From: Patescibacteria group bacterium
GTDB taxonomy: Bacteria; Patescibacteriota; Minisyncoccia; Ryanbacterales; GWA2-47-10b
Direction: 5' to 3'
Assembly: GCA_038065475.1 (NCBI GenBank)
Contig: JBBTQY010000005.1
Coordinates: 2,793-66,792, forward strand
Length of the DNA stretch: 64,000 nt
A program made the position numbers and the translations under genes. Below the pieces are notes generated by a model. That model saw only the letters and a program-made list of their open reading frames with translations, was not told where the DNA came from and made no database searches. Below are positions 4,784-62,655 of this stretch, one piece after another. Each line of letters begins with the position of its first letter. The stretch's first letter is position 1.

Positions 4784-6310
4784 CTAGCTCAAAAACAAAT
4801 CTTTTTTGGGGCGATATTGAAGGGCTTCCAAAAGATGTTCGCGCAAAATATTTTTTGCACCAGCCAAGTCCGCAATCGTACGCGACACTTTGAGTACGCG
4901 ATGATATGCGCGTGCCGAAAGATCCAAACGCTTTGATGCATCTTCCAAAAGTTTTTTCTCCGTATCTGCAAGTGCGCAGTGTGTTTTGATATCGCGCAGT
5001 GTCATCTCACTATTCGTCGCAAACTGCGCGTCACCAAATCGCGCGCGCTGCATCTCTCGCGCTGATGTCACACGTACACGCACTGCGGTCGATGTCTCCC
5101 CCACTTCTGCATCAGAAGATAATTTTTCGTATTCTACTTGCGGCATTTCCAGCCACATATCGATGCGATCAACAATCGGGCCTGAGAGTCTTCGCGCGTA
5201 GCGTTCGAGCGCGCTGTTGCTGCACGTACAAAGTTTTGTCGAACCCTTGTTGCCACACGGGCACGGGTTCATGGCGGCGGCAAGCATGATGTGTGCGGGA
5301 AACGTCATCGAACCTTTTGCGCGTGAAATGGAAATCATACGATCTTCAAGCGGTTGGCGAAGTGTTTCAATCACACGTCTATCAAACTCAGGAAATTCAT
5401 CGAGAAACAATACGCCACCATGCGCGAGCGTCACCTCACCGGGGCGTGGCACGGTACCGCCACCTACCAGTGAAACATACGAAGATGTATGATGTGGGCT
5501 TCGAAAAGGCCGTTCGCGTACAACGCCATCACGCAAAACACCTGCCGCACTATGAATTGATGTGATATCAAGCGCTTCATCAAACGAGAGTGGAGGGAGT
5601 ATTGATGCGAGTGCTCGCGCAAGAAGTGTCTTACCGGTACCGGGCGGACCGATAAATGCTACATGATGATTGCCGGCCGCTGCAATCTCAAGGCCGCGTT
5701 TGGCAAACTCTTGGCCTTTGATGTCGCGCAAATCAAGTTCAGGATTTTCAAGCTTTGGTGAAAACAGCGCCTGTTTCACTACTTCAAGATTTTTTTCTTG
5801 CATCAAATGTTTAGTGATGTCAGAGAAATGCGATGCCGCAAAAATATTGATGCCACCCACAAGTGCCGCCTCATCACGATTCCCCTCCGGTATATAGGCC
5901 TCAGTAAATCCACGCGCGCGTGCCGAGAGTAAGAGCGAGACAACGCCGCGTACCGGTCGCAGCGATCCTTCGAGCGCGAGTTCTCCGACAAAAAATTTTT
6001 TGTCGGGATCAAATTTTATCTGACCTGATTCAGCGAGATACGCGAGCGCTATCGGCACATCAAAAAATGCTCCTTCTTTTGGTAGATCTGCGGGTGCGAG
6101 GTTTACCGTGATGCGATTATTTTTCTTTTGTGGTGGACGAAAGCCAGAATTTTTTATGGCAGCAGAAACACGTTCGCGTGCTTCTTCTACTGCTTTGTCG
6201 GGCAGGCCAACAATCGAGAGGCGATGAAGCCCCGGTACCATATCAATTTCAACTTCGATAGGAAATCCTTTGAGACCGACAATTTGTCCCGAGTGGATTT
6301 TTGTCGCCAC
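4784..6310 (-). CDS. comM: YifB/ComM family Mg-chelatase-like AAA+ ATPase
   Basis: GPPGTGKTLLARALASILPPLSFDEALDITSIHSAAG. N-terminal Lon-protease-like domain and C-terminal ChlI-like region. 508 aa. Confidence 0.85.
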   Translation of the reverse strand: MATKIHSGQIVGLKGFPIEVEIDMVPGLHRLSIVGLPDKAVEEARERVSAAIKNSGFRPPQKKNNRITVNLAPADLPKEGAFFDVPIALAYLAESGQIKFDPDKKFFVGELALEGSLRPVRGVVSLLLSARARGFTEAYIPEGNRDEAALVGGINIFAASHFSDITKHLMQEKNLEVVKQALFSPKLENPELDLRDIKGQEFAKRGLEIAAAGNHHVAFIGPPGTGKTLLARALASILPPLSFDEALDITSIHSAAGVLRDGVVRERPFRSPHHTSSYVSLVGGGTVPRPGEVTLAHGGVLFLDEFPEFDRRVIETLRQPLEDRMISISRAKGSMTFPAHIMLAAAMNPCPCGNKGSTKLCTCSNSALERYARRLSGPIVDRIDMWLEMPQVEYEKLSSDAEVGETSTAVRVRVTSAREMQRARFGDAQFATNSEMTLRDIKTHCALADTEKKLLEDASKRLDLSARAYHRVLKVSRTIADLAGAKNILREHLLEALQYRPKKDLFLS

Positions 6311-10842: not shown

Positions 10843-11730
10843 GTGCGACCCATGACGATTGAAAAAATAACACGCGAATTTTTGGAAGATTTGGAGCTCG
10901 AGCGCGGGCGTTCACCAAAAACGATAGAAAACTATGATCACTACCTCAAGCGTTTTTTTATGCACGCCAAAGTTTCCAACCCCGCGCATATTTCTGACGA
11001 ATTAGTTAGATCATATCGTCTCGCACTCAACCGCACAGGACTTTCTCCTCGCACGCGCAATTATCATCTCATCGCGTTGCGTATGTTTTTAAAATATTTA
11101 GCCAAGCGCGATATCAAATCACTCGCACCCGAACGTGTGGAGTTAGCGAAACTCGGCGATCGAGACATCGATATACCGCATGAAGGAGACTTAGATCGAT
11201 TACTGGGTGCGCCAAAAACTGATGCCCTGCAAGGACTTCGCGACCGCGCGATCTTAGAACTTTTATTTTCAACTGGACTTCGTGTATCAGAACTCTGCGC
11301 GCTCAATCGCGACTCACTTGATCTGGGGCGTGATGAATTTTCCGTGCGCGGCAAGGGTTCAAAAATTCGTATCGTGTTTCTTTCAAAGGATGCCAAAGAT
11401 GCAATCCGTGCGTATCTTGCAAAACGCGGCGATATGTCAGATGCGCTTTTTGCAGGCACGCAAAAGAAAAATCCGGCGCGACTCACCTCGCGTCAGATTG
11501 AACGTCTTGTTAAACGCTACGCGATTGGCGCGGGCATTCCAGGAAAGGTGACACCCCATACATTGCGACATTTGTTTGCGACTGATCTTTTGCTCAATGG
11601 TGCTGATATCAGATCAGTACAGGCAATGCTTGGTCATTCATCGATCACGACGACGCAAATCTATACACACATGACCGACAGACAACTTCGCGAAGTACAT
11701 AAAGCTTTTCACGGGAAGCGCAGAAAATAA
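10843..11730 (+). CDS. tyrosine site-specific recombinase, XerC/XerD-like
   Basis: HTLRHLFATDLLLNGADIRSVQAMLGHSSITTTQIYTHM (R-H-R-Y catalytic region). N-terminal SAM-like core-binding domain (KTIENYDHYLKRFF). 295 aa. Confidence 0.85.
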   Translation: MRPMTIEKITREFLEDLELERGRSPKTIENYDHYLKRFFMHAKVSNPAHISDELVRSYRLALNRTGLSPRTRNYHLIALRMFLKYLAKRDIKSLAPERVELAKLGDRDIDIPHEGDLDRLLGAPKTDALQGLRDRAILELLFSTGLRVSELCALNRDSLDLGRDEFSVRGKGSKIRIVFLSKDAKDAIRAYLAKRGDMSDALFAGTQKKNPARLTSRQIERLVKRYAIGAGIPGKVTPHTLRHLFATDLLLNGADIRSVQAMLGHSSITTTQIYTHMTDRQLREVHKAFHGKRRK

Positions 11731-11762
11731 TTTTTAAAAAATATTTGAGTATAAAAACGTAT

Positions 11763-12237
11763 GGCGGGGAGCTCTGGTGAGCTCCCCGCCGTGCCTTCAT
11801 CGACGGATCTCTAGGATCTCTCCTCCTCTACGTCTGAGGACCTTCTTCGGCGCGTTCGTTTCTCTGGCAGGCGCTGTGTCTCTCCTCGGGCCGTCGAGTA
11901 CTCGGAAATGATCTCCGTCTTCGACGCCCCGTGCACAGTCCCGCGAGAAATCACTTGTAGCGGTAAGTGTCCAACCCATCTTCCCCCTCGTAGTGCTGGA
12001 TTCCCTCCGGAACCCTCTTTGAAGTGCCTTACCTTTCCCCGTGCCGTAGTGGGTACGAGACTTGCCTCTCCCCTTCACGATCGGTAGCTACTTCTTCCCT
12101 GAATTGCGGAACCCTCCCTTTGTTCCGACGTTTTTTGGGAAGTAGATCGCTACGTGCTCGCGCGAAGAGATGGCCGTTTCCTCGCCTCATGCACCCTCCT
12201 TGCGGGGTTCGCCAGCCCTGAGGGCCAGCTTGGTTTC
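11763..12237 (-). ncRNA. candidate large structured ncRNA of unknown class (GC-rich, purine-rich transcript)
   Basis: About 475 nt with no ORF longer than 93 aa on either strand, about 60% GC against a ~48% background. Strong strand asymmetry: plus is C/T-rich and minus is G/A-rich. Minus-strand promoter-like TTGCAA-16-TAGAAT (plus 12246-12273) and a minus-strand intrinsic terminator GGCGGGGAGCUC-ACCA-GAGCUCCCCGCC plus AUACGUUUUUAU (plus 11763-11790). Internal repeats GGGUUCCG (x2) and CACUACG...GGGG (x2). No match to RNase P, tmRNA or 6S consensus that I could recognise by eye. Confidence 0.3.
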
Positions 12238-12347
12238 TGTTTAGTATTCTATACCTGCCTTAAAATATTGCAACAAAGCTCAAAGTATGGTCTTTTGCGT
12301 AGTCAAGAATATGTTGAAAAATAAGGGTTTTTAGGTGCTTTCGATAC

Positions 12348-16143: not shown

Positions 16144-16215
16144 GTCCTCGTGGTGAAATGGATATCACGACTGGCTTCGAACCAGTTATTGGGGGTTCGA
16201 GTCCCTCCGAGGACA
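16144..16215 (+). tRNA. tRNA-Arg (anticodon TCG)
   Basis: Cloverleaf: acceptor GTCCTCG/CGAGGAC, D-arm GTGA-AATGGATA-TCAC, anticodon arm ACTGG-CTTCGAA-CCAGT, T-arm GGGGG-TTCGAGT-CCCTC. CCA not encoded. Confidence 0.8.
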
Positions 16216-16293
16216 CAGCTGAAAGCTGTTCTCATATAGGAGGGACGAGAACGGAGCAAAGGATTTTGCTCCGCGGGGTTTGCGAGAAGCAAA

Positions 16294-16315
16294 CGAGTCC
16301 CTCCGAGGACACAGC
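16294..16315 (+). repeat. 22-bp direct repeat of the tRNA-Arg 3' end (copy of 16198-16219)
   Basis: CGAGTCCCTCCGAGGACACAGC occurs at 16198-16219 (tRNA T-arm/acceptor plus 4 nt) and again at 16294-16315. Confidence 0.8.
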
Positions 16316-16339
16316 GATACTTTTTTATTTTTTTAATTT

Positions 16340-16412
16340 CCACTCGTAGCTCAGTTGGTAGAGCAGTCGCCTCTTAAGCGAACGGTCGTAGGTTCGATCC
16401 CTACCGAGTGGA
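16340..16412 (+). tRNA. tRNA-Lys (anticodon CTT)
   Basis: Acceptor CCACTCG/CGAGTGG, D-arm GCTC-AGTTGGTA-GAGC, anticodon loop CTCTTAA, T-arm GTAGG-TTCGATC-CCTAC. Preceded by a T-rich run and a TGGTATAAG-type extended -10 further upstream. Confidence 0.8.
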
Positions 16413-16512
16413 CAATAACCAAAGTTATTGTCCACGGCAGCTCCTCGCGCGATAGCGCGACGATATGAAAAGCTGCCGCAACAATAAGCCGGGGGCGTAG
16501 TTCTATATAAAT

Positions 16513-17970
16513 ATGTCAAAAATTCCAAAAGAAATAATCTCTATCATCCAAACTTTAGAGGGCGCCGGCTTCGAGGCGTTTGCAGTTGGCGGTTGCGTGC
16601 GCGATCTTCTCATCGAGCGCAAACCGAAAGATTGGGATGTCACCACGAGTGCGATACCCGAAGATATTTTGCGCTTGTTTCCTGATAGCAAATATGAAAA
16701 TGATTTTGGTACGGTGTGCGTATTTTCTCAAAATCCGTCTGAGGCATCGCTTGCGATGATTGAGGTGACCCCCTATCGTACCGAGGCACAGTACTCGGAC
16801 AAGCGCCACCCTGACCGCGTTGAGTTTGGTAAATCACTCGAAGAAGATTTGGCGCGGCGCGATTTTACCATCAATTCACTGGCACTTAATGTAAAAACTG
16901 ATGAGGTGATAGATTTATTTTCTGGCAAGCGCGATTTTCGTGAAGGGCTTATCCGTGCAGTTGGCAATGCCGAAGAACGCTTTTCAGAAGACGCGTTGCG
17001 CATCATGCGCGCATTGCGCTTGTCAGCCGAGCTTGGTTTTCAGATTGAAGACGCGACACTCGCCGCCATCAAAAAAACCGTAAAACTTTTACGTTTCATT
17101 GCCAAGGAACGTATTCGCGACGAGTTTTCAAAGATCATCCTCTCCCCCACTCCGCACGAAACGCTCGAGCTTATGCGCGCGTTGGGTATTTTAAAACTCG
17201 TGTTACCAGAGCTCGAAGAAGGTGTAGGCGTGGGGCAAAATAAGCATCATGTCTATACCGTGTGGGAGCATAATCTCTACGCGCTCAAATACGCGGCGTC
17301 CAAAGAATGGTCACTCGAAGTGCGTATGGCAGCCCTTCTTCATGATGTAGGTAAGCCACGCTCAAAGCGCGGTGATGGACCGGACTCTAGTTTTTATGGT
17401 CATGAAATAATTGGTGCCAAAATGACTACGACTATTTTGGGTCGTCTTAAATATTCAAAACAGTTTATCGACAAAGTATCAAAACTCGTGCGCTATCACC
17501 TCTTTTATTACAATGTCGATGAGGTTGGCGAAGCATCAGTACGCAGGCTCATACGCAAGGTAGGTCCCGAAGATATGGAAGACTTGATAAAAGTGCGCTT
17601 CTGCGACAGGATTGGTTCGGGAGTGCCCAAGGCTGAACCATATAAATTGCGTCATTTTCGTTTTGTTATCGAGAAGCTTTCACGCGATCCAATCTCGGTC
17701 AAAATGCTCAAAGTAAACGGCGGCGATATCATGAAGATTGCGAATCTCGAACCAAGCCCCAAAGTTGGCCAACTGCTCAATATCTTGCTTGAGGAAGTGC
17801 TTGATGACCCCAAGCGCAACACTAAAGATATTTTGCAGGCGCGTATAAAAGAGCTTGCGGGCATGACCGAGCGCCAGCTCAAGGCACTTGCTGATGGCGC
17901 CAAGAAAAAATCATCAGCACTCGAAGAAGAAGAAGTGACGAAAATAAAAGGAAAACACAGGGTGAAGTAA
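16513..17970 (+). CDS. cca: CCA-adding tRNA nucleotidyltransferase (PolyA polymerase/CCA family with HD domain)
   Basis: GGCVRDLLIERKPKDWDVTT head domain, RDFTINSLA, HD-domain motif HDVGKP. Consistent with seven of the eight tRNAs here lacking an encoded CCA. Confidence 0.85.
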   Translation: MSKIPKEIISIIQTLEGAGFEAFAVGGCVRDLLIERKPKDWDVTTSAIPEDILRLFPDSKYENDFGTVCVFSQNPSEASLAMIEVTPYRTEAQYSDKRHPDRVEFGKSLEEDLARRDFTINSLALNVKTDEVIDLFSGKRDFREGLIRAVGNAEERFSEDALRIMRALRLSAELGFQIEDATLAAIKKTVKLLRFIAKERIRDEFSKIILSPTPHETLELMRALGILKLVLPELEEGVGVGQNKHHVYTVWEHNLYALKYAASKEWSLEVRMAALLHDVGKPRSKRGDGPDSSFYGHEIIGAKMTTTILGRLKYSKQFIDKVSKLVRYHLFYYNVDEVGEASVRRLIRKVGPEDMEDLIKVRFCDRIGSGVPKAEPYKLRHFRFVIEKLSRDPISVKMLKVNGGDIMKIANLEPSPKVGQLLNILLEEVLDDPKRNTKDILQARIKELAGMTERQLKALADGAKKKSSALEEEEVTKIKGKHRVK

Positions 17971-17973
17971 AAA

Positions 17974-18044
17974 CGGAGCGTAGTATACCGGTAGTACGCG
18001 CCCTTCGGGAGGGCGTAGACTGGGTTCGATTCCCAGCGCTCCGA
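17974..18044 (+). tRNA. tRNA-Pro (anticodon CGG)
   Basis: Acceptor CGGAGCG/CGCTCCG, short 3-bp D-stem GTA-TACCGGTAG-TAC, anticodon arm CGCCC-TTCGGGA-GGGCG, T-arm CTGGG-TTCGATT-CCCAG. Starts 4 nt after the cca stop. Confidence 0.7.
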
Positions 18045-18117
18045 CATTTATATAAAATACCCCAGCACACGCGTGGGGCATTTTATATTTTTGTATTGAG
18101 TTATATACTGATGGCAC

Positions 18118-18651
18118 ATGAAAGGCGAAGAAGTTCCAACGACTGAGGAGGGACAAGAGATGCAACAATCCCCCGAGCGTCCTCCCGTCATCAATACTCA
18201 TGCGCCGCTCTTGCGTGCGCATTTTGAGGGTTATGCGGGCGAACAAGTCTATGAAAATGGCGAGGAGGATCTCGATCCAATTCGTAAGGAGATAGCTGCG
18301 TACTACGGCGTGCCGCTCGATGAACAGCACATGCTCATCATCGAGAACGAAATGATCGAAGATCATCGCCACCAACGGGCGTTTTGTGTCGTTCAGCATT
18401 CAGCTCCCGATGGCATCAAGGAGTCGTGGTACATTGACGGACGTACCGGCCACGCGGTCATGTTGAGGCGTTTGTATGCGTATTACAAAGTCCCCGATGA
18501 TCCAGAGCACAACGAGATTCATTTGGGGTTCTTGAGCGACGAAGCCTTCTCCGACGTACCCAAGATGCAGCAGCTCGCAGATGCCGGCAAGCCACTCAAA
18601 TGGTTTGTGCGCGACACTGCACACGGTTTAAGTCCCAGTGACTTTCTTTGA
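18118..18651 (+). CDS. hypothetical protein
   Basis: 177-aa acidic protein with no recognisable motif, followed by a strong terminator. Confidence 0.5.
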   Translation: MKGEEVPTTEEGQEMQQSPERPPVINTHAPLLRAHFEGYAGEQVYENGEEDLDPIRKEIAAYYGVPLDEQHMLIIENEMIEDHRHQRAFCVVQHSAPDGIKESWYIDGRTGHAVMLRRLYAYYKVPDDPEHNEIHLGFLSDEAFSDVPKMQQLADAGKPLKWFVRDTAHGLSPSDFL

Positions 18652-18675
18652 GTAGACCTTTTATGCTCAATGTCC

Positions 18676-18744
18676 GACCGTGTCTGTACACGGTCTTTTT
18701 CTTAAAAAAAATAAAAAGGCCGCTACGATGTTACGGTAGCGGCC
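18676..18744. terminator. pair of convergent intrinsic terminators
   Basis: Plus strand: GACCGTGT-CTGT-ACACGGTC followed by TTTTTC (18676-18702). Minus strand: GGCCGCTACCGTAACATCGTAGCGGCC followed by TTTTTATTTTTTTT (18718-18744, overlapping the stop of the minus-strand ORF). Confidence 0.7.
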
Positions 18745-19106
18745 TTGGCCTCGTAGGCCTGTTTGAAATAGCTCGCGAGATGGGCAAGCCCATCATGCAT
18801 CACAAGCACTTTCGTGGCCCACACGCTCGCGGTCTTGTTGGCGGTAAGACAGATGCGCAGACGCGATTCGATGTATGCGAGCCTCTTCTCCGGTTCGACC
18901 TGCGGATACGCAGGTGTGCGAATGGTCATGAGAACGATCTTGCGCGCAAAGGCGCTATCATCAGCACTTGGGGTTGCCAGATACATGTGTATGGGCGCAC
19001 CCGTGGCGATACTGAGTAGGATTTGAGCTATCCCCGGAATCATGGTTGTCATGGTAAGAACCTCCGTTTCTAAACAATGAATATCATATTTTATATATAA
19101 AGTCAA
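18723..19106 (-). CDS. hypothetical protein
   Basis: 127-aa ORF ending inside the terminator hairpin. No recognisable motif. Confidence 0.4.
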   Translation of the reverse strand: MTLYIKYDIHCLETEVLTMTTMIPGIAQILLSIATGAPIHMYLATPSADDSAFARKIVLMTIRTPAYPQVEPEKRLAYIESRLRICLTANKTASVWATKVLVMHDGLAHLASYFKQAYEAKAATVTS

Positions 19107-19229
19107 TAGTTCTGTTGCTCTACCGCGACAGCTAGTGTATAAAGATAAAGTTATCGGGCCAGTGGCGCTTCGCTTGCAGGCCCGGCGTTCGGAGAAAAAT
19201 TATGCAAGCACTCTTTTTGTTTCTTACTT

Positions 19230-19300
19230 GGGCCTGTAGTTAAGTGGTATAACGGCGCATTCGCATTGCGCAAGCGGGAGTTCGATTCTCCCCAGGTCCA
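19230..19300 (+). tRNA. tRNA-Ala (anticodon CGC)
   Basis: Acceptor GGGCCTG/CAGGTCC with a G3-U70 wobble pair, an alanine identity element consistent with this call. D-arm GTTA-AGTGGTA-TAAC, anticodon arm GCGCA-TTCGCAT-TGCGC, T-arm GGGAG-TTCGATT-CTCCC. Confidence 0.75.
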
Positions 19301-19358
19301 CAAATATATAACTATAAAACCGCCCAGGGAGAGGTTTTATAGTTATTGCAGAATTTCC

Positions 19359-19688
19359 ATGAAGTTTTATAATTGTCATATGTCCATAGAAAACTCATCG
19401 AAACCTGAACTATCAGAAACTGGCTTGGCCGGAATTATAGCTTTTTCCAAAAGACCCGAAGAAGACATTAAAACTTTTATGGAAACGGCCATGTCGGCGA
19501 AAATTGAAGGAAGTGCGACTGAACAATCAAAAGCTATCCTGGAAGCGTCCGAACTAGAGAGATTCATAGCCCGTGACCAATTCGAGTCCGCAATTTCTGG
19601 CCTTGCTCGACGCTTAGAAGATGGAGACGATAAATCAGCGCTTGAATATTTGGTACGTCTAGGCTTGAACATAGTTGAGAATCACTAG
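19359..19688 (+). CDS. hypothetical small protein (AT-rich segment)
   Basis: ORF downstream of tRNA-Ala. The longer upstream extension overlaps the tRNA, so the start was placed at Met 19359. No motif. Confidence 0.35.
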   Translation: MKFYNCHMSIENSSKPELSETGLAGIIAFSKRPEEDIKTFMETAMSAKIEGSATEQSKAILEASELERFIARDQFESAISGLARRLEDGDDKSALEYLVRLGLNIVENH

Positions 19689-19748
19689 AACTCGTGTCAA
19701 TTTTTGTATAATACCTAGAAAGCCGTTCTCAAAGCTTGCTAGTTTCAT

Positions 19749-19961
19749 GTGAAAAGACCAAAAATCGGGTCAGTTATCGTGTGGGGATCTAAAACATTTA
19801 AAGCAAGCGGTGAGGCGCACAAGCATATAGGGTTTTATATCGGACACAATATGGCCGTTAGCAATAACTATAGAACTGGCCGTATTTACAAGCATTCTTG
19901 GGATTTTAATGGAAAAAGGGTCGTCGATTCGTTATATTGGTACGGCTCATTCTCCTCTTAA
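19749..19961 (+). CDS. hypothetical 70-aa protein, possibly an NlpC/P60- or CHAP-like hydrolase remnant
   Basis: GTG start lying inside a TTTCATGTGAAA palindrome. HIGFYIGHNMAVSNN resembles the C-terminal His region of NlpC/P60-type hydrolases. Probably a fragment. Confidence 0.3.
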   Translation: MKRPKIGSVIVWGSKTFKASGEAHKHIGFYIGHNMAVSNNYRTGRIYKHSWDFNGKRVVDSLYWYGSFSS

Positions 19962-20046
19962 ATATGGTATTTCACGTGAAATATCGGACATTTCTGTGGA
20001 TATCTATTGGACATAGTGGATAAAAGACACGATTTAATGTCTTTTA

Positions 20047-20565
20047 GTGTCTTATATGCCTAAATACAGCGAAAAACGCCAGATTGGTAATATTGCCGAA
20101 GATATCTCGGCGATGTTTCTCGTGAAAAGCGGTCACAAGATTTTAGATAGAAACTATCTAAAGAAGTGGGGTGAGCTCGATATCGTATCGGTTGACCGAT
20201 CCGATACCATTCATTTTATAGAGGTTAAGTGTAAGACTATCTGGTTTTCACGGGAAACATTATCAGAAAACACTAATAATTTAGTTTCACAATATGTTTC
20301 ACAAAAAAGTTTCACGAAAGATAGTTTTAAAATAGAACTTTCACGTGAAAGCTATAATGAAGAAAACGACGAATATCGTCCTGAAGACAATGTCCATTAT
20401 CACAAGCAGAAGCGCATGATGCGAGCAATCGAGTCCTACATGATGGAAAATCAAGATAAAATGGGGGAAAGGGAATGGCAGATCGATGTTTTGGCTGTAG
20501 CTCTCGATTTTTCACGGGAAACAGCTATAATGAGGCATATTGAAAATGTGATATTTGATATATAG
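20047..20565 (+). CDS. YraN-family (UPF0102) endonuclease-like protein with a repeat-derived ~60-aa insertion
   Basis: GNIAEDISAMFLVKSGHKILDRNYLKKWGELDIVSVDRSDTIHFIEVKCKT plus C-terminal YHKQKRMMRAIESYMMENQ...WQIDVLAVALD match YraN. The central insertion is encoded by repeated TTTCACG(T/G)GAAA units, giving FSRET/FSRES/FTKDS repeats. Confidence 0.6.
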   Translation: MSYMPKYSEKRQIGNIAEDISAMFLVKSGHKILDRNYLKKWGELDIVSVDRSDTIHFIEVKCKTIWFSRETLSENTNNLVSQYVSQKSFTKDSFKIELSRESYNEENDEYRPEDNVHYHKQKRMMRAIESYMMENQDKMGEREWQIDVLAVALDFSRETAIMRHIENVIFDI

Positions 20566-20578
20566 GTTTCACATGAAA
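20246..20578. repeat. cluster of 12-bp palindromic repeats TTTCAC(G/A)(T/G)GAAA
   Basis: Copies at about 20246, 20339, 20510 and 20567, plus GTTTCAC x3 at 20284-20315. Further copies at 19743 and 19970. Located both inside the YraN-like CDS and in flanking DNA. Confidence 0.7.
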
Positions 20579-20672
20579 AGAAACCTTAATCAGCCGGCAT
20601 CGGTTGTACCCCAGTCGATAGGATGTCGCATTTCATGCGACGACTAGGGCGAACCATGCCCCCGGCATGGTT

Positions 20673-20743
20673 CGGAGTGTAGTATACCGGTAGTACGTCT
20701 GCTTTGGGAGCAGATAGACTGGGTTCGATTCCCAGCACTCCGA
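20673..20743 (+). tRNA. tRNA-Pro (anticodon TGG)
   Basis: Same scaffold as the 17974 tRNA (CGGAGTG...TAGTATACCGGTAGTAC...CTGGGTTCGATTCCCAG CACTCCG). Anticodon arm TCTGC-TTTGGGA-GCAGA. Confidence 0.7.
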
Positions 20744-20773
20744 CAATTTGGTTTTAGCTGCTAGTATATATGT

Positions 20774-22228
20774 ATGGCCAATAAACAGCTTTTGGATTAT
20801 GTCCAAAAATCACTCCAAAGCGGATATTCAGCTCAAGAAATAAGCCCTGCCCTTGTCGATAAAGGATGGGGGACGAGCGAGGTGCACGAGGCAGTTCTTG
20901 CTGCGCAAGAACTGATACGCCAAAAACCAGCGTTGCCACCACTTCCACCACCTCCATCAAAAGCATCAGAATGGACCATTGAGCTCAAGAGTTTGTCTGC
21001 TTCACAGATTTTACTATATCTTGGCGGACTCATTGTGGTACTCGCAGGACTTATTTATATCGGTATCAATTGGCAGCAGTGGGGATCTTTGGGGCGTATT
21101 TTTGCTATCTTTCTGCCAATGTTTATTTGCTATGCGCTCGGTACTCCACTCTTTTTTAAAGAGGAATATAAAAAACATGGCATTGTATTTGTAGTTGTTG
21201 GATCATTGTTGTTTCCGCTTTTTCTTTCGATTGTATTTGTGGAGATGAAACTTTTTGGTAAGTTTTACGGAAATAGTTTTGGTATGGCGGTTTCTTTGCC
21301 TACGTTTTTACTGTATAGCATGCTCAGTTTTGCGTTTCGGTTTCCTATTTGGGCAGGGCTTTATCAAGGTGCGGGGTTGTTTGTATATTTTTATTTTTGG
21401 AAACTATTGGGTGTTGCCGATTTTGATAAAGAGCCAGTACTCGCGTGGCTCTTTTTGATACTGGGTACTGCGTACATGGTGCTCAGTTTGTGGTATGAGC
21501 GTCTTGAGAAAAAAATAGAGGCGTGGCATTCGCATATCTTAGGGTCGCTGGTTGTCGTATGCTCGCTTGCGCGTATTTTTGTTGAAACACTTGATCGCGC
21601 GTATTTCTCATGGATCTTGATCGTGCTTGGTATTGGTTACTTTGCTTTTGGTGCGTGGGTTGAGTCAAATAAGATAAAAAAATATTGTTCGGTCGCATAT
21701 TTTATAGGCGCGGGGCTCGTGTTTTTCTCGCTGTTGCGATTAGGGCTCGACGGAACTCTTTTGAAAGATATCACTGCTACGCGGGGATTTGATCAAGATA
21801 TTATTGGTTGGTCAAATATTATTGTTGGCGTTTTGTATCTTGCACTTAGCGCGCTTTTGTCGCAACTTAGTAAATTTGGTTTGCAGGAAGGGTCTCGATA
21901 TAAAGAATTTTTTGATTTGGCAGGACCCGGACTTGTACTCAGCGCCGTTTTCTTTTTGGGGCTTGATGGATCAAAGCCGATTTATGAGACATTGTTGTTG
22001 CTTGCAAGTCTCGGATTTATCTTTGGTAGTATCCCAAAACGTTCACGTCAATTTTTGTACCTTGGTACATTGTTTTTGATTGTTTATATTTTCTCCATTG
22101 GTGGAGAATATTTTGAAAACGATGTTGGTTGGCCAATTATTTTGTTTGTGGCTGGCTTTGTCTCAATGGGTATTGGCGTGGGGATTGAAAAAGTACGACG
22201 AAAATATTTTACGGCCTCAAAAGGTTGA
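20774..22228 (+). CDS. hypothetical polytopic membrane protein with a soluble N-terminal domain and Pro-rich linker
   Basis: 484 aa. The N-terminal ~60 aa are followed by PALPPLPPPPS, then about 12 hydrophobic helices. Confidence 0.6.
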   Translation: MANKQLLDYVQKSLQSGYSAQEISPALVDKGWGTSEVHEAVLAAQELIRQKPALPPLPPPPSKASEWTIELKSLSASQILLYLGGLIVVLAGLIYIGINWQQWGSLGRIFAIFLPMFICYALGTPLFFKEEYKKHGIVFVVVGSLLFPLFLSIVFVEMKLFGKFYGNSFGMAVSLPTFLLYSMLSFAFRFPIWAGLYQGAGLFVYFYFWKLLGVADFDKEPVLAWLFLILGTAYMVLSLWYERLEKKIEAWHSHILGSLVVVCSLARIFVETLDRAYFSWILIVLGIGYFAFGAWVESNKIKKYCSVAYFIGAGLVFFSLLRLGLDGTLLKDITATRGFDQDIIGWSNIIVGVLYLALSALLSQLSKFGLQEGSRYKEFFDLAGPGLVLSAVFFLGLDGSKPIYETLLLLASLGFIFGSIPKRSRQFLYLGTLFLIVYIFSIGGEYFENDVGWPIILFVAGFVSMGIGVGIEKVRRKYFTASKG

Positions 22229-22418
22229 TGAAATAAGAAAAACACTCACTCGGCTTTCTAGAGAGGAGGTCTGCAGGATTACGCGAAGTCTTGTAAAAAG
22301 TCTGATTTTGTGCTATAGTTTCTCCGAACTTAGAACCTCGATAACATAAATTTCTAGTTGAAACACCCGCATCTAAAGCCGAAACTGCTTTTTGATGCCG
22401 AGATTAGGAGGAAGGGAA

Positions 22419-24077
22419 GTGAAGAGACTTTTAATTCTCTTGCTCGCACTTGCGAGCTTGAGCTTGCGACCGCCCGGGACGGCGGCGCAGAGTTCGATCA
22501 ACGTCCCGGACGTGACGGGCGACCAGCTCGTCATGTTCTACGACGCGCGCTCATCGCGCGTGCCGTTCATGACCATCTCGAACCCGGCGCTCGAGCGTGT
22601 CGTTCTGAGGGCTGACTTCTACAACATCGACCTCACTTTCGTCATCGCCTCCGAGACCATTGTTCTCGAAGGCGGTAGTAATGTCGTCATCGATCCGACC
22701 GGAGTCGATGGTGGCATCGTCAACGGCAACGCAGGTCTTGCGGTCATCACTCCCACGCGGAGCGAGACCGACATCCAACCGGTGGTACCTCCAGCGCCCC
22801 TCATGGGGAATTGGACCTTGGCGAATCTCGATCTCGCCTCTGCGTTCGGCGAGAACATCTTCGGGCGTCTCGCGGTGCGGCAATCGGGCGAGCGGGCGAG
22901 TGCATGGAGTACCGTCGATGGTGATGCGGTGCGCTACCAGCGCATCGATCCTCACGCCGTGGTCATCCCTGCGCACTACAATCCCCAAGACTTGGGTCCT
23001 GTGGAGTTCGATGGTAACCGCGTGGTCATTGCGGTCTTCCGTGACGTCTACGACGGCGGCTTTCGTCTCGCTCCGCAGTTCGAGCGATTCGAAGCTTCAT
23101 TCATCGAACGCTTCGGATACCAGGTGGCCAAGACCCAGATCAACGTCGATGGCGTGCTGATGAGCGATCTCGTTTCGCTCGCTGGTGCGCAGCTTCGTTC
23201 GTCTGGAAAGGTGTTCTTCCGTCGTCTCGACCGTGCAAGCGGCGGGAACGCATTCGGCGTCTTCAGTCAGTCGCTCGGCACATTCGGTGCCGGTGGCCGC
23301 ATGATCGCCGTGGAGAACGTGCCGGATTTTTCACAAGCTCCAGCGCCTACTGGGACGCCGACGCCGGAGCCTACTGATCGTCCGACTCCGCGTCCCACCC
23401 CTACCTTCACGCCTCGGCCTACGCCGAGCCCGACACCAATTCCGACTCGGACGCCACAACCTACGGCGACTCCGAAGAAAACTCCGGCACCGACCGCAAA
23501 ACCTACGCAGACCCCGCGGCCGACGGCAACACCGAAGCCGACGGTGACTGCAAAGCCAACGCCGAGTCCCACACGGACGCCGTCGCCTACGGCGATTCCG
23601 ACCAACACTCCGCGGCCTACGGAAACTCCGAGGCCGACGGTAACACCGATCAAGACTCCGACGCCTACTCCGACCAGGACACCCACTCCGTCGCCGAGTC
23701 CAACGCCTACAATGACTCCGACCCCAACGCCGTCTGCAACTCCAACGCAGACGCCAACTCCGACACCAACGCAGACTCCGTCGTGTATCGACAACGACAA
23801 CGACGAGTACTGTGCGGGAAGCGGCCCCAGCAAGGACTGCAATGACTCGAATGCATCGGTAAACCCCGGTGCGACCGAGCAATGCAACAACATCGACGAC
23901 AACTGCCGCAATGGTACTGACGAGGACTTCCCCGAGAAGGGAGGAGTGTGCTGGCGCCTCGTTGGCACTGCCTGCTGGCGTGGCGAGAAGCGCTGCGCGC
24001 AAGGAGGTGGCGGGGGAGGCAACACCATCCAGTGTCTGCCGCTCTCGATAGAGCCTGACTCAAACCAGTGCAACTAA
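22419..24077 (+). CDS. secreted protein: N-domain + Thr/Pro-rich linker + MopE-like Cys-rich (putative metal-binding) C-terminal domain
   Basis: Probable GTG start 8 nt after AGGAGG (22405-22410). Signal peptide [23 protein letters not shown]. About 140 aa of (T/P) repeats. C-terminus [49 protein letters not shown]...CWRGEKRC matches the DCDDxNxxxNPGAxExCNGxDDNC MopE-like motif. GC-rich (~62%). Confidence 0.7.
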
Positions 24078-24296
24078 AGAAACAATCATAGGAGGGCGAT
24101 CATCATCCTCCGAATCATGGCCCAGTACGCGTTCCACGCGCGCTGGGCTTTTTTAATACAATGACTTGCAAAAAAGCTGATTTTATGATATAGTTTTTCG
24201 GAACTTCAGGTCCTTGTTAATTCCTAGTTTTTGAGAAGAAAAAAATCGCACCCCAGAGATAAGGGTGCTCAACCATTCAACCGAAGGAGAGAAACC

Positions 24297-25781
24297 ATGA
24301 AGCGTTCGCTGTTTGGATTGCTGATCGTTCTCGCGCTGTTCATGCCCCTGCTGGCCTGTGCCAGCGACATGCCGCGTGAGCTCGATGACTACTGCGTCTT
24401 CGCCAACAAGAAGTTGGTGCTCGGCACCAACGCGGCCGTGCTCGATGGTAGCGCTGGCGTCAACAAGTCGAGTGCGCGTGCCTCGAAGGTCCTCATGACC
24501 ATGAGGCCGTACTCGATCGTCGATCCGGATTTCCCGACCGCCGCATCGAGCGTCAAGATGGCAACGTACGCGACAGTAGGGGAGTTGTTCCGCAACTTCC
24601 TGACTTTGTCGGGGCCTGTGAACATCGACGAGGAGTATAGTGGGACGTTCCCCGTGCTCACTCTGCCCGAGCTCCCGTTCTTCTTGCCGGAGGACGACCA
24701 CATCATCCTACAAGAAGGGACGAAGTGGCTCGGTCCCGGGCAGTACGGGTTTCTCGAGGTAGGACCTGGGGCCACCGTCATCCTGACGGGCGGCGAGTAC
24801 CACTTTCTGCAGACCTGGTTTCGCTCGGGCTCTCAGCTTTACTACGAGAGTCCAGTCGACGTTCGTGTCCAGGGAAAGTTCATGGGTGATGAAGGGATCG
24901 TGATGCGTCCGGCCCTTTGGGCTGATGTATTGCCTCACGAGGCAAGCTTCGCGATTGGTGGGCCGATGGTGACCTTCGGGCCACTCGGCTCTTACGAGGG
25001 GATGTTCTATGCTCCTCGCAGTACCGTTCGAGTTCAGAGGCAGACGACGATCACCGGCCAGTTGGTCGGCAACAAGATCCGATTTGCCGACAACGCACGG
25101 TGCGTCTGGGCTGCGGCGGAAATCACGACGACTCCAACCCCCACGCCAAGTCCAACACCAACCCCAACGAGGACTCCAAGTCCAACGCCAACGTTGACAC
25201 CGACAGCGACTCCGTCGCCAACACCGACGAAAACGCCGACCCCAACTCCGACTCGTACACCAACCCCGACCCCGTCGGCAACACCAACATCCGTTCCCAC
25301 GCTGTCGCCAACGCCAAATCCAACGGCGACCCCGACTCCTTTGCCGACGGCCACGCCAACGCCCACACCGACCAGGACGCCGACCCCCGCGCCGACGCAG
25401 ACGGCGACGCCAACCGCGATTCCCACCCCAACACCCTCGGTAGCGCCGACGGCAACTCCCACCCCGACTCCCGTGCAGTCACCCATCTGCGTCGACAACG
25501 ACAACGACGAGTACTGTTTAGGGCAAGGGCCGGGGAAGGATTGCAACGATGCGAACGCATCGGTGAACCCCGGCGTCGTCGAACAATGCAACAACATCGA
25601 CGACAACTGCATCAACGGCACCGATGAGGACTTTCCCGGCAAGGGTGCGGTGTGCTGGCGCCTCGTCGGCACTGCTTGCTGGCGCGGCGAGTCACGCTGT
25701 GCCCAGAGTGCTGGCGGGGGAGGCAACACCATCCAGTGCCTACCTCTGACGTCTGAGTCAGATTCTTCCAAATGCAACTAG
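24297..25781 (+). CDS. lipoprotein paralogue: different N-domain + Thr/Pro-rich linker + near-identical MopE-like Cys-rich C-terminal domain
   Basis: RBS AAGGAGA. Signal [21 protein letters not shown] with LLAC lipobox. C-terminal ~100 aa are about 85% identical to the 22419 protein ([41 protein letters not shown]...). Confidence 0.7.
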
Positions 25782-60452: not shown

Positions 60453-60722
60453 TTACCATGGACCCATTCCGAGAAGAGCTAGAGTTGCTACGCCAAAAAC
60501 AATCATCCAGAAGCTAGCAACAAGTCCAATGGGTATTGCAACCCAACGATGCCATCCAGAATGTTTAATGACAGTCCAAAGACTAAAGATAAAACCAAAA
60601 GCACCAGCTATCGACAAGAGGAGGACGATTGTTAAGTCATTAAGCGGCCTTTGTAAAAACAGAGGCAAACTCGAAAGGATAAGGAAGATGAAGGCGATGA
60701 AAAGTTTGGTATTTGCGTTCAT
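60453..60722 (-). CDS. possible small membrane protein (divergently overlaps the start of the next gene by ~25 nt)
   Basis: 89 aa, three TM-like segments, plausible protein composition. Confidence 0.35.
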   Translation of the reverse strand: MNANTKLFIAFIFLILSSLPLFLQRPLNDLTIVLLLSIAGAFGFIFSLWTVIKHSGWHRWVAIPIGLVASFWMIVFGVATLALLGMGPW

Positions 60723-62655
60723 GGTGTTGATTGGCGCGTGCTCGTCGAGCTACGCGTATAGCATCATGGCTCACCGGTATTTTGCCTGCAAAGCTCTCGC
60801 TGGGCTTGGTGGGTATCCAGATGCCGAGGCCGAGCTGCGCGCCCATGCCTACTGCAATGATTGTACTATCTTCGGCGCATGTAGTCGATATCCGCTCAGG
60901 CGCGACCCTTTCCCGCAGTATTACAAGTATCTGAGTGAGAGTCAGTCTTCGCTGTCCGCAACAGTAGATGCTGTCTGCAAGGGGGCTGATGTTGCAAACT
61001 ACTCACCCCCCGAACAAACTTCTTACAAGGCAATACATATTGATTATCCAGGTGATGATATTCTTATGGGCGCAATCGAAGAAGATGGTGGATCAGTGGT
61101 TGATCATATAATGGGTATGCGCATCCCACGGTATCTGACTCATTTTTGGGATCCCGATCTTGATCCAACCGGTGCTCAAGGAGGGCTTTCACTTGGATTG
61201 CGGCCGGGTAAAAATCTAAACGACATTCTCAAAAAACTAGGGTCCCCACTCTGTCCAGAGGCAGACCAGCCATCTTGCGAAGAACGAGAAACGGCGCTCA
61301 GTCGCGCTAGGTCTCTCTGGAGTCACGCCTTAAATCTCTATCGGGCGGGCAACAAACGCGAAGCTTACTATGTCTTGGGGCGAGTTGCTCATCTTCTCTC
61401 AGATCTCACGGTACCCGCGCATGTGCATAGTGATGTGCACGGCGGGGCGATCGCGGGTGCACTGATTGCCGACGCGTGCTGCGGAGGCAAGCAACACGCC
61501 GAGAAAGATAAAGACACGCTTGAGCTGCGCACAAAGAATGCCGCGCTTCTCAAGAGCTTTGATGACATAGACGTGATGCCTTATCATCACGAGACTCTTC
61601 TCGACGACGCGCTCTGGGCGAGTGTCACTGACAATCCATCCGACGGACTCTTTCGTCTTTTCTGGTTCACCGCCCAGAAGACGCAGTATTGGGCAAGCGA
61701 TGGCGACAAAGATCCATCGCCTCCTATTACCGTGTCCGGTGGGCGCTGCGAGGCTCCTGATTTTCTGAAGGATGCCAAGCAAATCTGTATCGAGTATGCC
61801 AAACAGAGCCCCGCATTCTATCGCGCAAAAGATGGTTCCCCAGGTTTCCTCCCAGCTGATCTCTGGGCCGCAGAAGGGATGCCGCTCCATCAACCGTGCG
61901 AGATTAGGTCTCTCACCGCCAATGAAGAAAAAGTCATGGCGCGAGCACTCGCGACTCATGCACTCTCAGCGGTTTCCGGCCTCTATCGGCTCTTCTGGGA
62001 TCAGACGCATGATCAGGACGGCGATGGGTACGGCGTAGTCACTGACTGTGATGATGCCAACCCCGCCATGTTCCCCGGCAATACCGAGGTGTGCACTGAC
62101 GCGCTCGACAACGATTGCGACGGCGAGGCCAACGAAAACTGCGCGTCGTTTGCAATCACCCACAGCCCCTACGCCCATGATCCTGATGGTGATGGCGACC
62201 ACGACCCTCACCAACTCTCTGACATTCGAGTCGCTGAATCGTCAGGCGGTGTCTCGTCTCTCGTCACATTAAGTCTCGAGGTTACAGGAGGTTTTGCAGA
62301 AAACGTTCTTCTGCGGGTTGCAGGTATTGCCCCAGATGACAGTCCGGTGCACATGCCCGACGGTCCAGACGATGACCTGCTGCCAGATGACTATGGTGAT
62401 GGCGTGGCAGATGGCCCGTACAATGCTGATTTCACGCTACTTTTCAGCCCGCGCTTTGGTCCGGGTGCGGGCACAACAACAAGAACCATCCCCGCAGGGG
62501 GTTCTACCGAGTTCAAGCTTCGTAGGCTCGCCACACTCGCGCCCGGGCGGTACATGCTCAAGATTGAGGGCGTGAGCGCGGTGACCTCACTGACACGCTC
62601 TGCCGAACTCGTGCTGGTGATCGGTGAGAATACGCCGGGGTACACTCCCCGCTAG
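60697..62655 (+). CDS. secreted zinc-dependent phospholipase C / P1-nuclease-superfamily-like protein with MopE-like Cys motif and C-terminal beta domain
   Basis: Start placed at MKSLVFAFMVLIGACSSSYAYS (signal peptide, RBS AAGGAAG 9 nt upstream). HFWDPDLDP and GRVAHLLSDLTVPAHVH resemble Zn-PLC metal-binding motifs. DGYGVVTDCDDANPAMFPGNTEVCTDALDNDCDGEANENC is a MopE-like motif. GC-rich. Confidence 0.6.
   Translation: MKSLVFAFMVLIGACSSSYAYSIMAHRYFACKALAGLGGYPDAEAELRAHAYCNDCTIFGACSRYPLRRDPFPQYYKYLSESQSSLSATVDAVCKGADVANYSPPEQTSYKAIHIDYPGDDILMGAIEEDGGSVVDHIMGMRIPRYLTHFWDPDLDPTGAQGGLSLGLRPGKNLNDILKKLGSPLCPEADQPSCEERETALSRARSLWSHALNLYRAGNKREAYYVLGRVAHLLSDLTVPAHVHSDVHGGAIAGALIADACCGGKQHAEKDKDTLELRTKNAALLKSFDDIDVMPYHHETLLDDALWASVTDNPSDGLFRLFWFTAQKTQYWASDGDKDPSPPITVSGGRCEAPDFLKDAKQICIEYAKQSPAFYRAKDGSPGFLPADLWAAEGMPLHQPCEIRSLTANEEKVMARALATHALSAVSGLYRLFWDQTHDQDGDGYGVVTDCDDANPAMFPGNTEVCTDALDNDCDGEANENCASFAITHSPYAHDPDGDGDHDPHQLSDIRVAESSGGVSSLVTLSLEVTGGFAENVLLRVAGIAPDDSPVHMPDGPDDDLLPDDYGDGVADGPYNADFTLLFSPRFGPGAGTTTRTIPAGGSTEFKLRRLATLAPGRYMLKIEGVSAVTSLTRSAELVLVIGENTPGYTPR

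Follow-up and report, generated by a model that had tools for sequence, protein, structure and literature searches.

A tight cluster of probable chromosomal parS and half-parS sites in and around yraN of a Patescibacteria genome

parS is the near-universal chromosome-partition site of bacteria and is bound by ParB. The sites usually lie near parB, and most of those in B. subtilis are intragenic, one of them within spo0J itself; in plasmid centromere arrays, such as F sopC, a dense local array of ParB-family sites serves as one centromere. The ParB/Spo0J centromere site has the consensus TGTTNCACGTGAAACA (PMC7022226, PMC7383237), and the heptamer GTTTCAC is a published half-parS, at which ChIP-seq detects ParB from P. 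aeruginosa and from several further species (PMC7022226). The absolutely conserved R173 of Caulobacter ParB specifies parS, and the R173Q substitution shifts its preference to adenine at position 1; Noc is known in Firmicutes only (PMC7383237). In the 64-kb stretch of Patescibacteria DNA analysed here (hereinafter the window), a set of short palindromes in and around yraN probably represents chromosomal parS sites, and the accompanying GTTTCAC heptamers half-parS sites; the type of element is known, while its arrangement is new and specific to the lineage.

With a criterion of at most one mismatch to the 12-bp core TTTCACGTGAAA, seven sites are packed together with three GTTTCAC heptamers into 840 bp (19741-20580; Table 1). 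The six 12-mers described in the earlier note lie where it placed them, at 19743, 19970, 20246, 20339, 20510 and 20567, as do its three heptamers, and a seventh, one-mismatch copy (TTTCTCGTGAAA at 20116) had been missed. Three of the six (20246, 20339 and 20510), rather than four, fall within the yraN coding sequence; the number reaches four only with the unlisted 20116, and the copy at 20567 begins 2 bases past the stop codon. The stretch between the two flanking tRNA genes is AT-rich, as had been observed (39.5% GC versus 48.8% for the window), and what had been taken for a 70-aa hydrolase-like open reading frame with its GTG start in a palindrome does not begin at that GTG but is the C-terminal remnant of an NlpC/P60-like gene with three in-frame stops, a gene that lies intact upstream of yraN in relatives (153-158 aa). 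No further one-mismatch site occurs elsewhere in the window, for which dinucleotide shuffles give a chance expectation of 0.23 sites (maximum 2), and none in 9.4 kb of additional sequence from that contig; with all seven sites confined to 0.84 kb out of the 73 kb covered, the motif is not uniformly distributed.

Table 1 Features of the yraN locus, in coordinates of the window
Feature	Position	Strand	Description
tRNA-Ala(cgc)	19230-19301	+	left boundary; content of the DNA after it varies between genomes
Decayed NlpC/P60-like gene	19380..19961	+	in-frame stops at 19686, 19713 and 19740
parS-like site 1	19741..19756		AGTTTCATGTGAAAAG; core 11/12; 4 mismatches to 16-mer
parS-like site 2	19968..19983		TATTTCACGTGAAATA; perfect 16-bp palindrome; core 12/12; non-coding, 86 nt 5' of yraN ATG
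Conserved non-coding block, parS-like site 2 to yraN start	19982..20050	-	DnaA-box-like 9-mers and inverted repeat
yraN (UPF0102, PD-(D/E)XK nuclease fold)	20056..20565	+	169 aa; identical to P0001, 'YraN family protein [Patescibacteria group bacterium]'
parS-like site 3	20114..20129		TGTTTCTCGTGAAAAG; core 11/12; encodes M-F-L-V-K-S, YraN N-terminal helix
parS-like site 4	20244..20259		GTTTTCACGGGAAACA; core 11/12; encodes F-S-R-E-T right after catalytic E-V-K
Clade-specific YraN insertion	20245..20376	+	residues ~64-107; 2 full sites and 3 half-sites
Half-parS-like heptamers GTTTCAC x3, direct	20284..20315	+	starts 20284, 20296, 20309; spacing 12 and 13 bp
parS-like site 5	20337..20352		ACTTTCACGTGAAAGC; core 12/12; encodes L-S-R-E-S
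parS-like site 6	20508..20523		TTTTTCACGGGAAACA; core 11/12; 2 mismatches to 16-mer on minus strand
parS-like site 7	20565..20580		GGTTTCACATGAAAAG; core 11/12; overlaps last stop-codon base, otherwise non-coding
tRNA-Pro(tgg)	20673-20744	+	right boundary; after yraN in 9/9 loci examined

The identity of the sites emerges from comparison with 80 GTDB yraN loci of other Patescibacteria. The flanks of exact cores over these loci give (T)GTTTCACGTGAAAC(A), matching the published parS consensus (PMC7022226, PMC7383237), and the perfect TGTTTCACGTGAAACA is present in many of them. Mismatches are tolerated at half-site positions 3, 5 and 6 and not at 1, 2 or 4, position 3 being the N of TGTTNCACGTGAAACA, and the half-site variants GTTCCAC and GTTACAC recur. 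The window cores agree with parS at 12 of 12 positions twice and at 11 of 12 five times, and none of the seven sites is a perfect parS 16-mer (2-4 mismatches each). The CACGTG core, previously called unusual, is simply the centre of parS; the proposal of a dense binding-site array for an unknown regulator stands as far as the array is concerned, while the regulator has an obvious candidate, ParB/Spo0J, through the parS and half-parS match.

Like the chromosomal parS sites of B. subtilis (Spo0J sites TGTTNCACGTGAAACA) and the clusters of Caulobacter, Streptomyces and Myxococcus, the yraN sites are 16-bp palindromes with a degenerate position that occur in several copies in one region, some inside coding sequences. 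Unlike those systems, the cluster is unusually tight, with seven full and three half-sites in 0.84 kb, is centred on yraN rather than parB with no parAB within reach, contains only imperfect copies in the window, and is in part written into protein as an in-frame insertion. The heptamers are identical to the half-parS (GTTTCAC/GTTCCAC) of P. aeruginosa ParB and several other ParB proteins and likewise lack the palindromic partner; whereas known half-parS sites are dispersed in their hundreds over the genome, the three at yraN are direct repeats spaced by 12-13 bp within a putative centromere cluster (PMC7022226). Plasmid arrays such as F sopC consist of a longer unit repeated regularly in tandem in non-coding DNA, in contrast to the irregularly spaced and mostly intragenic yraN sites. 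Some likeness also exists to the Noc-binding sites (NBS, TATTTCCCGGGAAATA) of Firmicutes, since half-site position 1 of site 2 is the A typical of NBS, and position 6 in one half of sites 4 and 6 is the NBS-type C. No window site combines A at position 1 with C at position 6 in both halves, and an NBS identity was rejected (PMC7383237); NBS are, moreover, dispersed along the chromosome with avoidance of the terminus, unlike the yraN cluster.

The association of the sites with yraN is conserved across genomes. In the 80 loci, site density is 1.33 per kb in yraN ±300 bp compared with 0.055 per kb elsewhere (~24-fold), and the palindrome cluster spans -2.5 to +0.5 kb relative to yraN, with at least one site between -2500 and +300 in 75 of the 80 loci, hardly any beyond these limits up to ±10 kb, and one copy typically 20-190 nt 5' of the start codon. 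Eight orthologous loci, at 50-86% protein identity, have the site map of the window. The orthologues of site 1 in L084 and L086 (-305/-285) encode W-F-H-V-K within the intact NlpC/P60-like gene, and the site is retained in the window although the surrounding gene has decayed. Site 2 departs from the consensus by two symmetric mismatches (A for G at half-site position 1), a variant (ATTTCACGTGAAAT) that recurs at -87/-96/-62 in L084, L085 and L090, and other Patescibacteria often have a perfect TGTTTCACGTGAAACA at this position. Site 3 (TTTCTCGTGAAA) is identical in seven of nine orthologues, the Leu codon CTC included; site 4 is a perfect core TTTCACGTGAAA in L085 and L086 (Arg CGT versus CGG). 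The first and third heptamers read GTTTCAC in 9/9 orthologues and the middle one in six, being TTTTCAC in L089, L090 and L001; their offsets are +228/+240/+253 in the window clade, with equivalent offsets in the other orthologues. Site 6, which encodes F-S-R-E-T in the YraN C-terminal block, is limited to the four closest genomes (the window and L084-L086), and a site directly 3' of the yraN stop, as site 7, is also present in L084, L085, L087, L089, L090 and L001.

Binding by ParB and a role in segregation are what these sequences predict for the yraN locus. The seven degenerate full sites and three half-sites within 840 bp would jointly nucleate one ParB-DNA partition complex, which presumably would also load SMC and engage ParA, and the centromere of Paceibacteria-type Patescibacteria would then be located in and just 5' of yraN. 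We searched all open reading frames for partition genes with regular expressions for the CTP-binding GERRxRA box, N-terminal in ParB, and for the KGGxGK box, and with phmmer using Spo0J and Soj queries, and found no ParB or ParA gene in the window, L081, the ~10 kb to the left or the 80 related loci (~1.2 Mb); the 10 kb left of the window hold a T4SS-like cluster without par genes. A search of conserved neighbours of yraN for a candidate binding protein returned just cca, exonuclease III, HU, XerC/D and RNase Y. In the literature searched we found no statement on ParB in Patescibacteria and no paper linking YraN, parS and Patescibacteria/CPR. Further points against the assignment to parS are the 2-4 mismatches to the 16-mer in every window site, the A that replaces G at half-site position 1 of the best of them, site 2, and, as regards closeness to the origin, the absence of dnaA from the window and of a GC-skew switch between -9 kb and +64 kb; a promoter-proximal position and exclusive association with a single gene would suit an ordinary operator as well.

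Between site 2 and the yraN start lies a conserved non-coding block that contains two minus-strand DnaA-box-like 9-mers, each matching at 8/9 positions (19995-20003 and 20015-20023), with a third, weaker box in between, as well as the inverted repeat AGACA-N8-TGTCT. L085 and L087 have perfect TTATCCACA boxes here, and over the 80 loci perfect boxes reach 1.44 per kb in -250..+10 of yraN compared with 0.087 per kb overall. As in DnaA-box clusters and DnaA-regulated promoters, these are TTATCCACA-type direct boxes about one helical turn apart and just 5' of a gene; unlike the known clusters, they adjoin parS, and many Patescibacteria retain them 5' of yraN. The conservation of such a DnaA-box-like array beside the upstream parS is a new side observation.

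The arrays might instead mark the locus as oriC or a part of it, with the DnaA boxes primary and parS accessory. Such an origin would explain why arrays of three boxes at ~10-bp spacing are conserved beside the upstream parS, why a pair of boxes stands 19-21 bp apart in 24 loci, and why ~70 of 100 perfect boxes (in 1.15 Mb) fall within 3 kb upstream of yraN; dnaA, absent from the 64-kb window, lies 8-10 kb from yraN in L013 and L020 (2/80 loci). GC skew pooled over 79 loci (L010 was left out as a duplicate of L009) flips at yraN, being negative to the left and positive to the right in 17 loci and the opposite in 5, a signal that is only suggestive. However, the pooled skew has fallen to zero at +6 kb, much as with a local gene effect, the skew of this genome does not switch anywhere between -9 kb and +64 kb, no DnaA-trio or unwinding element was recognised, and the window's clade has boxes and parS in the inverse order. 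On balance we regard an origin with accessory parS as rather unlikely, although it is the strongest of the competing explanations. Somewhat less likely still is a combined DnaA-box and parS chromosome control region, a centromere and possibly part-origin, with YraN as a dedicated origin/centromere factor; under this reading the yraN gene may be used as scaffolding for extra ParB sites, and the reader protein of the window's clade, given the recurrent ATTTCACGTGAAAT, may have a shifted specificity or may even be something else than a canonical ParB.

Another explanation, which we consider improbable, holds that the sites are operators through which a transcription factor other than ParB, either YraN itself by autoregulation or an unknown HTH protein, controls yraN. 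It accommodates the tie to a single gene in 75/80 genomes, the copy usually found 20-190 nt 5' of the start codon, the DnaA-box array adjoining the upstream site, as at regulated promoters, and the failure to find ParB in the DNA sampled. It does not account for a 16-mer consensus and degeneracy pattern that are those of parS or for half-sites that equal the published half-parS, and sites within the gene, downstream of it and up to 2.4 kb upstream exceed the needs of a simple operator. We know of no sequence-specific DNA-binding role for UPF0102, which also counts against regulation by YraN.

Assignment of the gene to the YraN family, made earlier from the sequence, is borne out by a PF02021 match of 56.6 bits (cut-off 23.6). 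In the alignment E40, D42, E56 and K58 are invariant and the D...E-V-K nuclease motif is present, and the predicted structure of the core is compact alpha/beta (pLDDT >=90). The insertion that had been described as ~60 aa made by four copies is real, but it comprises ~43 residues and holds just 20246, 20339 and the three half-sites, the copies at 20510 and 20116 lying outside it in the conserved C-terminal block and N-terminal helix, respectively. It is conserved within a Ryanbacteria-like clade and made largely of the sites, orthologues that have the insertion also have the nucleotide palindromes, and its residues 64-88 and 97-107 are predicted to be disordered (pLDDT <50). Selection for extra sites would have acted on DNA within a YraN surface loop tolerant of almost any peptide, with the clade-specific disordered FSRET/VSQ/SFT/LSRES insertion as the outcome.

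The opposite direction of causality, in which YraN needs a repeated peptide (VSR/VSQ/SRE) and selection on it yielded the DNA motif incidentally, might be read from the conservation of the insertion and of V-S-x-E after E-V-K at the protein level across the family. Such a peptide would not explain the three of seven sites outside the coding sequence, the site that survives in the decayed pseudogene, or the third heptamer, which lies in another frame (S-F-T) from the first two (both V-S-Q), and the predicted disorder of the insertion speaks against it. In a codon alignment, motif columns show 87% synonymous codon identity versus 54% elsewhere, and Ser is encoded by TCA in 36/53 versus 9/60 cases (p = 9e-9), a test that largely refutes the peptide-repeat reading and leaves it very unlikely. 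Because the sites occur in non-coding DNA, a decayed pseudogene and two reading frames, and their synonymous codons are frozen, the constraint is on DNA: the sites are maintained independent of coding context, and the ~43-residue insertion is conserved across the clade for the encoded sites, not for the peptide.

Least credible of all is the proposal, raised for a MITE-like element in the earlier note, that a MITE- or REP-like mobile palindrome spread into the locus and in frame into yraN: although an AT-rich, tRNA-bounded segment does contain several short palindromes and the DNA beside tRNA-Ala differs in content between genomes, the copies share no sequence beyond ~16 bp, have no terminal repeats or target duplications and no further copies elsewhere in the 64 kb or the further 9.4 kb, their positions are conserved across orthologous loci at 50-86% protein identity, which refutes this reading, and the gene order tRNA-Arg/Lys-cca-tRNA-Pro-tRNA-Ala-yraN-tRNA-Pro is kept, so that the segment is not a mobile island. 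A structured RNA was likewise rejected, as Rfam yields tRNAs only, both in the region and across the window, and a loopless 12-nt palindrome would form a very weak hairpin at most.

Understanding of parS itself is unchanged by the arrangement at yraN. The locus does provide a clean example of a DNA-binding-site code laid over a protein code, and the combination of yraN, parS and DnaA boxes would readily mark the chromosomal centromere in a bacterial group that is very large and uncultured, which would be of use in orienting and closing metagenome-assembled genomes, in origin searches and in choosing sites for ParB-based chromosome labelling. For the uncharacterised UPF0102/YraN family, the link to DnaA and ParB sites is a testable clue to function.

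The DNA between tRNA-Ala and tRNA-Pro is AT-rich, as the earlier note stated (39.5% GC vs 48.8% for the window), and carries all six of the 12-bp palindromes listed there, together with a further one-mismatch copy, TTTCTCGTGAAA at 20116, for a total of seven within one mismatch of TTTCACGTGAAA. A motif scan at the same threshold finds no further copy elsewhere in the 64 kb, and 100 dinucleotide-preserving shuffles of the window contain 0.23 copies on average and two at most. The three GTTTCAC heptamers in succession are likewise present. Four palindromes had been placed within the YraN-like coding sequence; three of the six listed lie there, four if the copy at 20116 is counted, and the one at 20567 follows the stop codon.

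Coordinates of motifs and genes at the yraN locus (window positions) and of the sites shared by orthologous loci (nt relative to the yraN start)
Feature	Position	Strand	Location or remark
tRNA-Ala(cgc)	19230-19301		ARAGORN
Decayed gene	19380-19961		
In-frame stops of the decayed gene	19686, 19713, 19740		
Palindrome	19743		upstream of yraN, within decayed gene
Palindrome	19970		upstream of yraN, non-coding
Non-coding block	19982-20050		between upstream parS and yraN start
DnaA-box-like 9-mers	19995-20003 and 20015-20023	minus	8/9 in window
yraN	20056-20565	plus	
Palindrome	20116		within yraN CDS
Palindrome	20246		within yraN CDS
GTTTCAC heptamers	20284, 20296, 20309		
Palindrome	20339		within yraN CDS
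Palindrome	20510		within yraN CDS
Palindrome	20567		begins two bases past yraN stop codon
tRNA-Pro(tgg)	20673-20744		ARAGORN
Orthologue site	~45-100 nt upstream of yraN		
Orthologue site	+60 to +84		encodes F-L-V-K
Orthologue site	+184 to +211		
Orthologue site			three heptamers, all loci
Orthologue site	+265 to +316		
Orthologue site	right after stop codon		most loci

By sequence, TTTCACGTGAAA matches the middle 12 bp of parS, the centromere-like site that ParB/Spo0J binds, for which TGTTNCACGTGAAACA is the published consensus (PMC7022226) and TGTTTCAC-GTGAAACA the idealised form (PMC7383237). GTTTCAC is the 'half-parS' heptamer, for which ChIP-seq has shown ParB occupancy in P. aeruginosa and in several further species (PMC7022226). 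We examined 80 yraN loci taken from GTDB with one genome per species, all from Patescibacteria and mostly of the Paceibacteria type. Among the exact 12-mers in these loci, the next base out is G/C in 46/70 and the one beyond is T/A in 34/70, and many loci contain a perfect TGTTTCACGTGAAACA. Sites with one mismatch are changed mostly at half-site positions 3, 5 and 6 and rarely at 1, 2 and 4, and the variants GTTCCAC and GTTACAC recur across the loci; the published consensus has its 'N' at the mismatch-tolerant position 3. None of the window's own sites is perfect: they differ from the parS 16-mer at 2-4 positions, and in the best of them, TATTTCACGTGAAATA, both half-sites have A at position 1, a variant that recurs in the clade (L084, L085, L089 and L090, loci of orthologues of the window gene). 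In the ParB/Noc family, the base at this position separates parS from NBS, and specificity follows residue 173, which is R in ParB and Q in Noc (PMC7383237); the cognate protein of the window's clade may therefore have a shifted specificity.

The motif is tied to yraN. Within 300 bp of the gene on either side, it occurs (≤1 mismatch) at 1.33/kb vs 0.055/kb in the other 1.07 Mb of the 80 loci, and the nine exact cores found farther out all lie ≤2.4 kb upstream. Binned by distance, sites occupy -2.5 kb to +0.5 kb, where 75 of the 80 loci have at least one, and otherwise stay at chance level within ±10 kb; over this span the distribution is not the uniform one that would have refuted the earlier note's reading. 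A typical locus has one exact site 20-190 nt before the start codon and a second ~165-180 nt into yraN, encoding V-S-[H/C/R]-E-T right after the catalytic E-V-K.

The window's site map is kept in the seven orthologous loci (L084-L090) and in L001; their 4-kb flanks contain no more copies, and a site at +454 is present only in the four closest genomes. Gene order is also kept: tRNA-Arg(tcg), tRNA-Lys(ctt), cca, tRNA-Pro, tRNA-Ala(cgc), yraN and tRNA-Pro follow one another in the window (16144-20744), L084, L086, L088 and L001. Because both are conserved, the segment is no mobile island, nor are its palindromes mobile repeats, and we reject the MITE-like element suggested earlier. Only the stretch from tRNA-Ala to yraN varies in content, from nothing in L088 to 5 kb in L001, and is a possible hot spot for insertions. 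In L085, where no tRNA-Ala was detected, yraN is preceded by a NUDIX gene and hicAB. Directly past tRNA-Ala, the window has a perfect 14-bp inverted repeat, ATAACTATAAAACC / GGTTTTATAGTTAT (19308-19346), probably a terminator-like hairpin.

The yraN ORF is confirmed as YraN/UPF0102 (PF02021, 56.6 bits); its product is identical to the database 'YraN family protein [Patescibacteria group bacterium]', and the source is a 304-kb contig from a groundwater metagenome (Hainich). Alignment of homologues supports the insertion; compared with short YraN proteins it adds ~43 residues (~64-107) instead of the ~60 first estimated, and two full sites plus all three heptamers fall inside it. Insertion-bearing proteins form one clade, down to ~50% identity, some labelled Ryanbacteria. 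An 86%-identical database protein, P0002, is labelled 'Methylomonas sp.' in NCBI and probably derives from a mis-binned Patescibacteria contig; L009 and L010 are two contigs of one assembly with the same yraN region. AlphaFold2 on the YraN protein alignment gives a confident core (pLDDT ≥90) and pLDDT <50 for insertion residues 64-88 and 97-107, the profile of what is probably a disordered, tolerated loop carrying DNA sites.

Selection on the DNA sites is the simplest reading of a codon alignment of nine yraN genes, four of them close relatives and not phylogenetically independent. At conserved amino acids, codon use is identical in 87% of pairwise comparisons in motif columns vs 54% elsewhere, and serine is encoded by TCA in 36/53 cases in motif columns vs 9/60 outside (Fisher p = 9e-9, a descriptive value since the sequences are related). 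The third heptamer is read in another frame (aGT TTC ACg, S-F-T) and is identical in nine of nine, and three sites are non-coding or within a pseudogene. That pseudogene replaces the supposed 70-aa hydrolase-like fragment with a GTG start inside a palindrome: no such gene exists, and the segment belongs to a decayed frame whose homologue in L084 and L086 is an intact gene of 153-158 aa with weak, sub-threshold similarity to NlpC/P60 and CHAP. The N-terminal part of the decayed frame is unrelated to the intact relatives' gene. Its palindrome, encoding W-F-H-V-K in those relatives, is kept in the window despite the decay.

The yraN array shows the consensus, clustering and DNA-level conservation of parS; by sequence, the element is a chromosomal parS cluster, and it would work like one. 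The earlier idea of a binding-site array was right, and its unnamed regulator gives way to ParB/Spo0J as the probable binding protein.

The non-coding block before yraN is conserved across the clade and holds DnaA-box-like 9-mers, which in L085 and L087 are perfect TTATCCACA boxes. The 80 loci together contain 100 perfect boxes, ~70 of them in the 3 kb upstream of yraN; their density is 1.44/kb in -250..+10 vs 0.087/kb overall (~16 times enriched). In 24 loci, two boxes 19-21 bp apart lie on the opposite strand from yraN, usually with a third, weaker box in between (spacing ~10 bp), and a palindromic GGACA-N-TGTCC-type inverted repeat flanks the array. Pooled GC skew changes sign at yraN and decays within 6 kb; on the window's contig, positive skew predominates between -9 kb and +64 kb and no switch is seen. 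No unwinding element was recognised. As to origin proximity, the window has no dnaA, and only 2/80 loci have dnaA 8-10 kb from yraN. The array could act as a promoter under DnaA control or belong to oriC.

Other features surround the locus. The neighbourhood includes a ComM/YifB-type Mg-chelatase-like ATPase (4784-6310, minus), a XerC/D-type recombinase (10843-11730, plus) and yraN, resembling the actinobacterial grouping rnhB-yraN-comM-dprA-xerC. A ~480-nt stretch, C-rich on the plus strand (11760-12240), has no ORF ≥110 aa and no Rfam match, contains a GC-rich hairpin (11765-11795) and might represent a minus-strand RNA gene that is missing from the annotation. Downstream of yraN, DNA of raised GC (56-62%) encodes several large proteins that carry a MopE-type metal-binding motif at the C-terminus (22392-25781 and 60529-62655), and homologues also follow yraN in L084, L085, L086 and L090. 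In L081, the same contig left of the window, positions 17352-20921 (~5-9.4 kb left of the window start) hold a PrgI-like, TraC-like and VirB4/TraG-like cluster of the type IV secretion/conjugation type.

No ParB or ParA homologue was found in the window, in the 9.4 kb left of it or in ~1.2 Mb of related loci, a sample too small to argue for absence because one gene is expected per ~1 Mb genome. parB is not adjacent to the parS cluster, which is unusual. A literature search found no paper on a yraN-centred parS array paired with DnaA boxes.

By analogy with other bacteria (PMC7022226), the array sites would be where ParB dimers load before closing as CTP-dependent clamps and spreading. This would build a single partition complex serving ParA-driven segregation and the loading of SMC; a few perfect sites may be replaced here by many weak ones packed into 0.84 kb. 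The arrangement itself is unusual: in a lineage that is large and uncultured, the sites crowd into a very tight array around yraN, part of which is encoded within YraN as a probably disordered insertion in frame, and DnaA boxes accompany the array.
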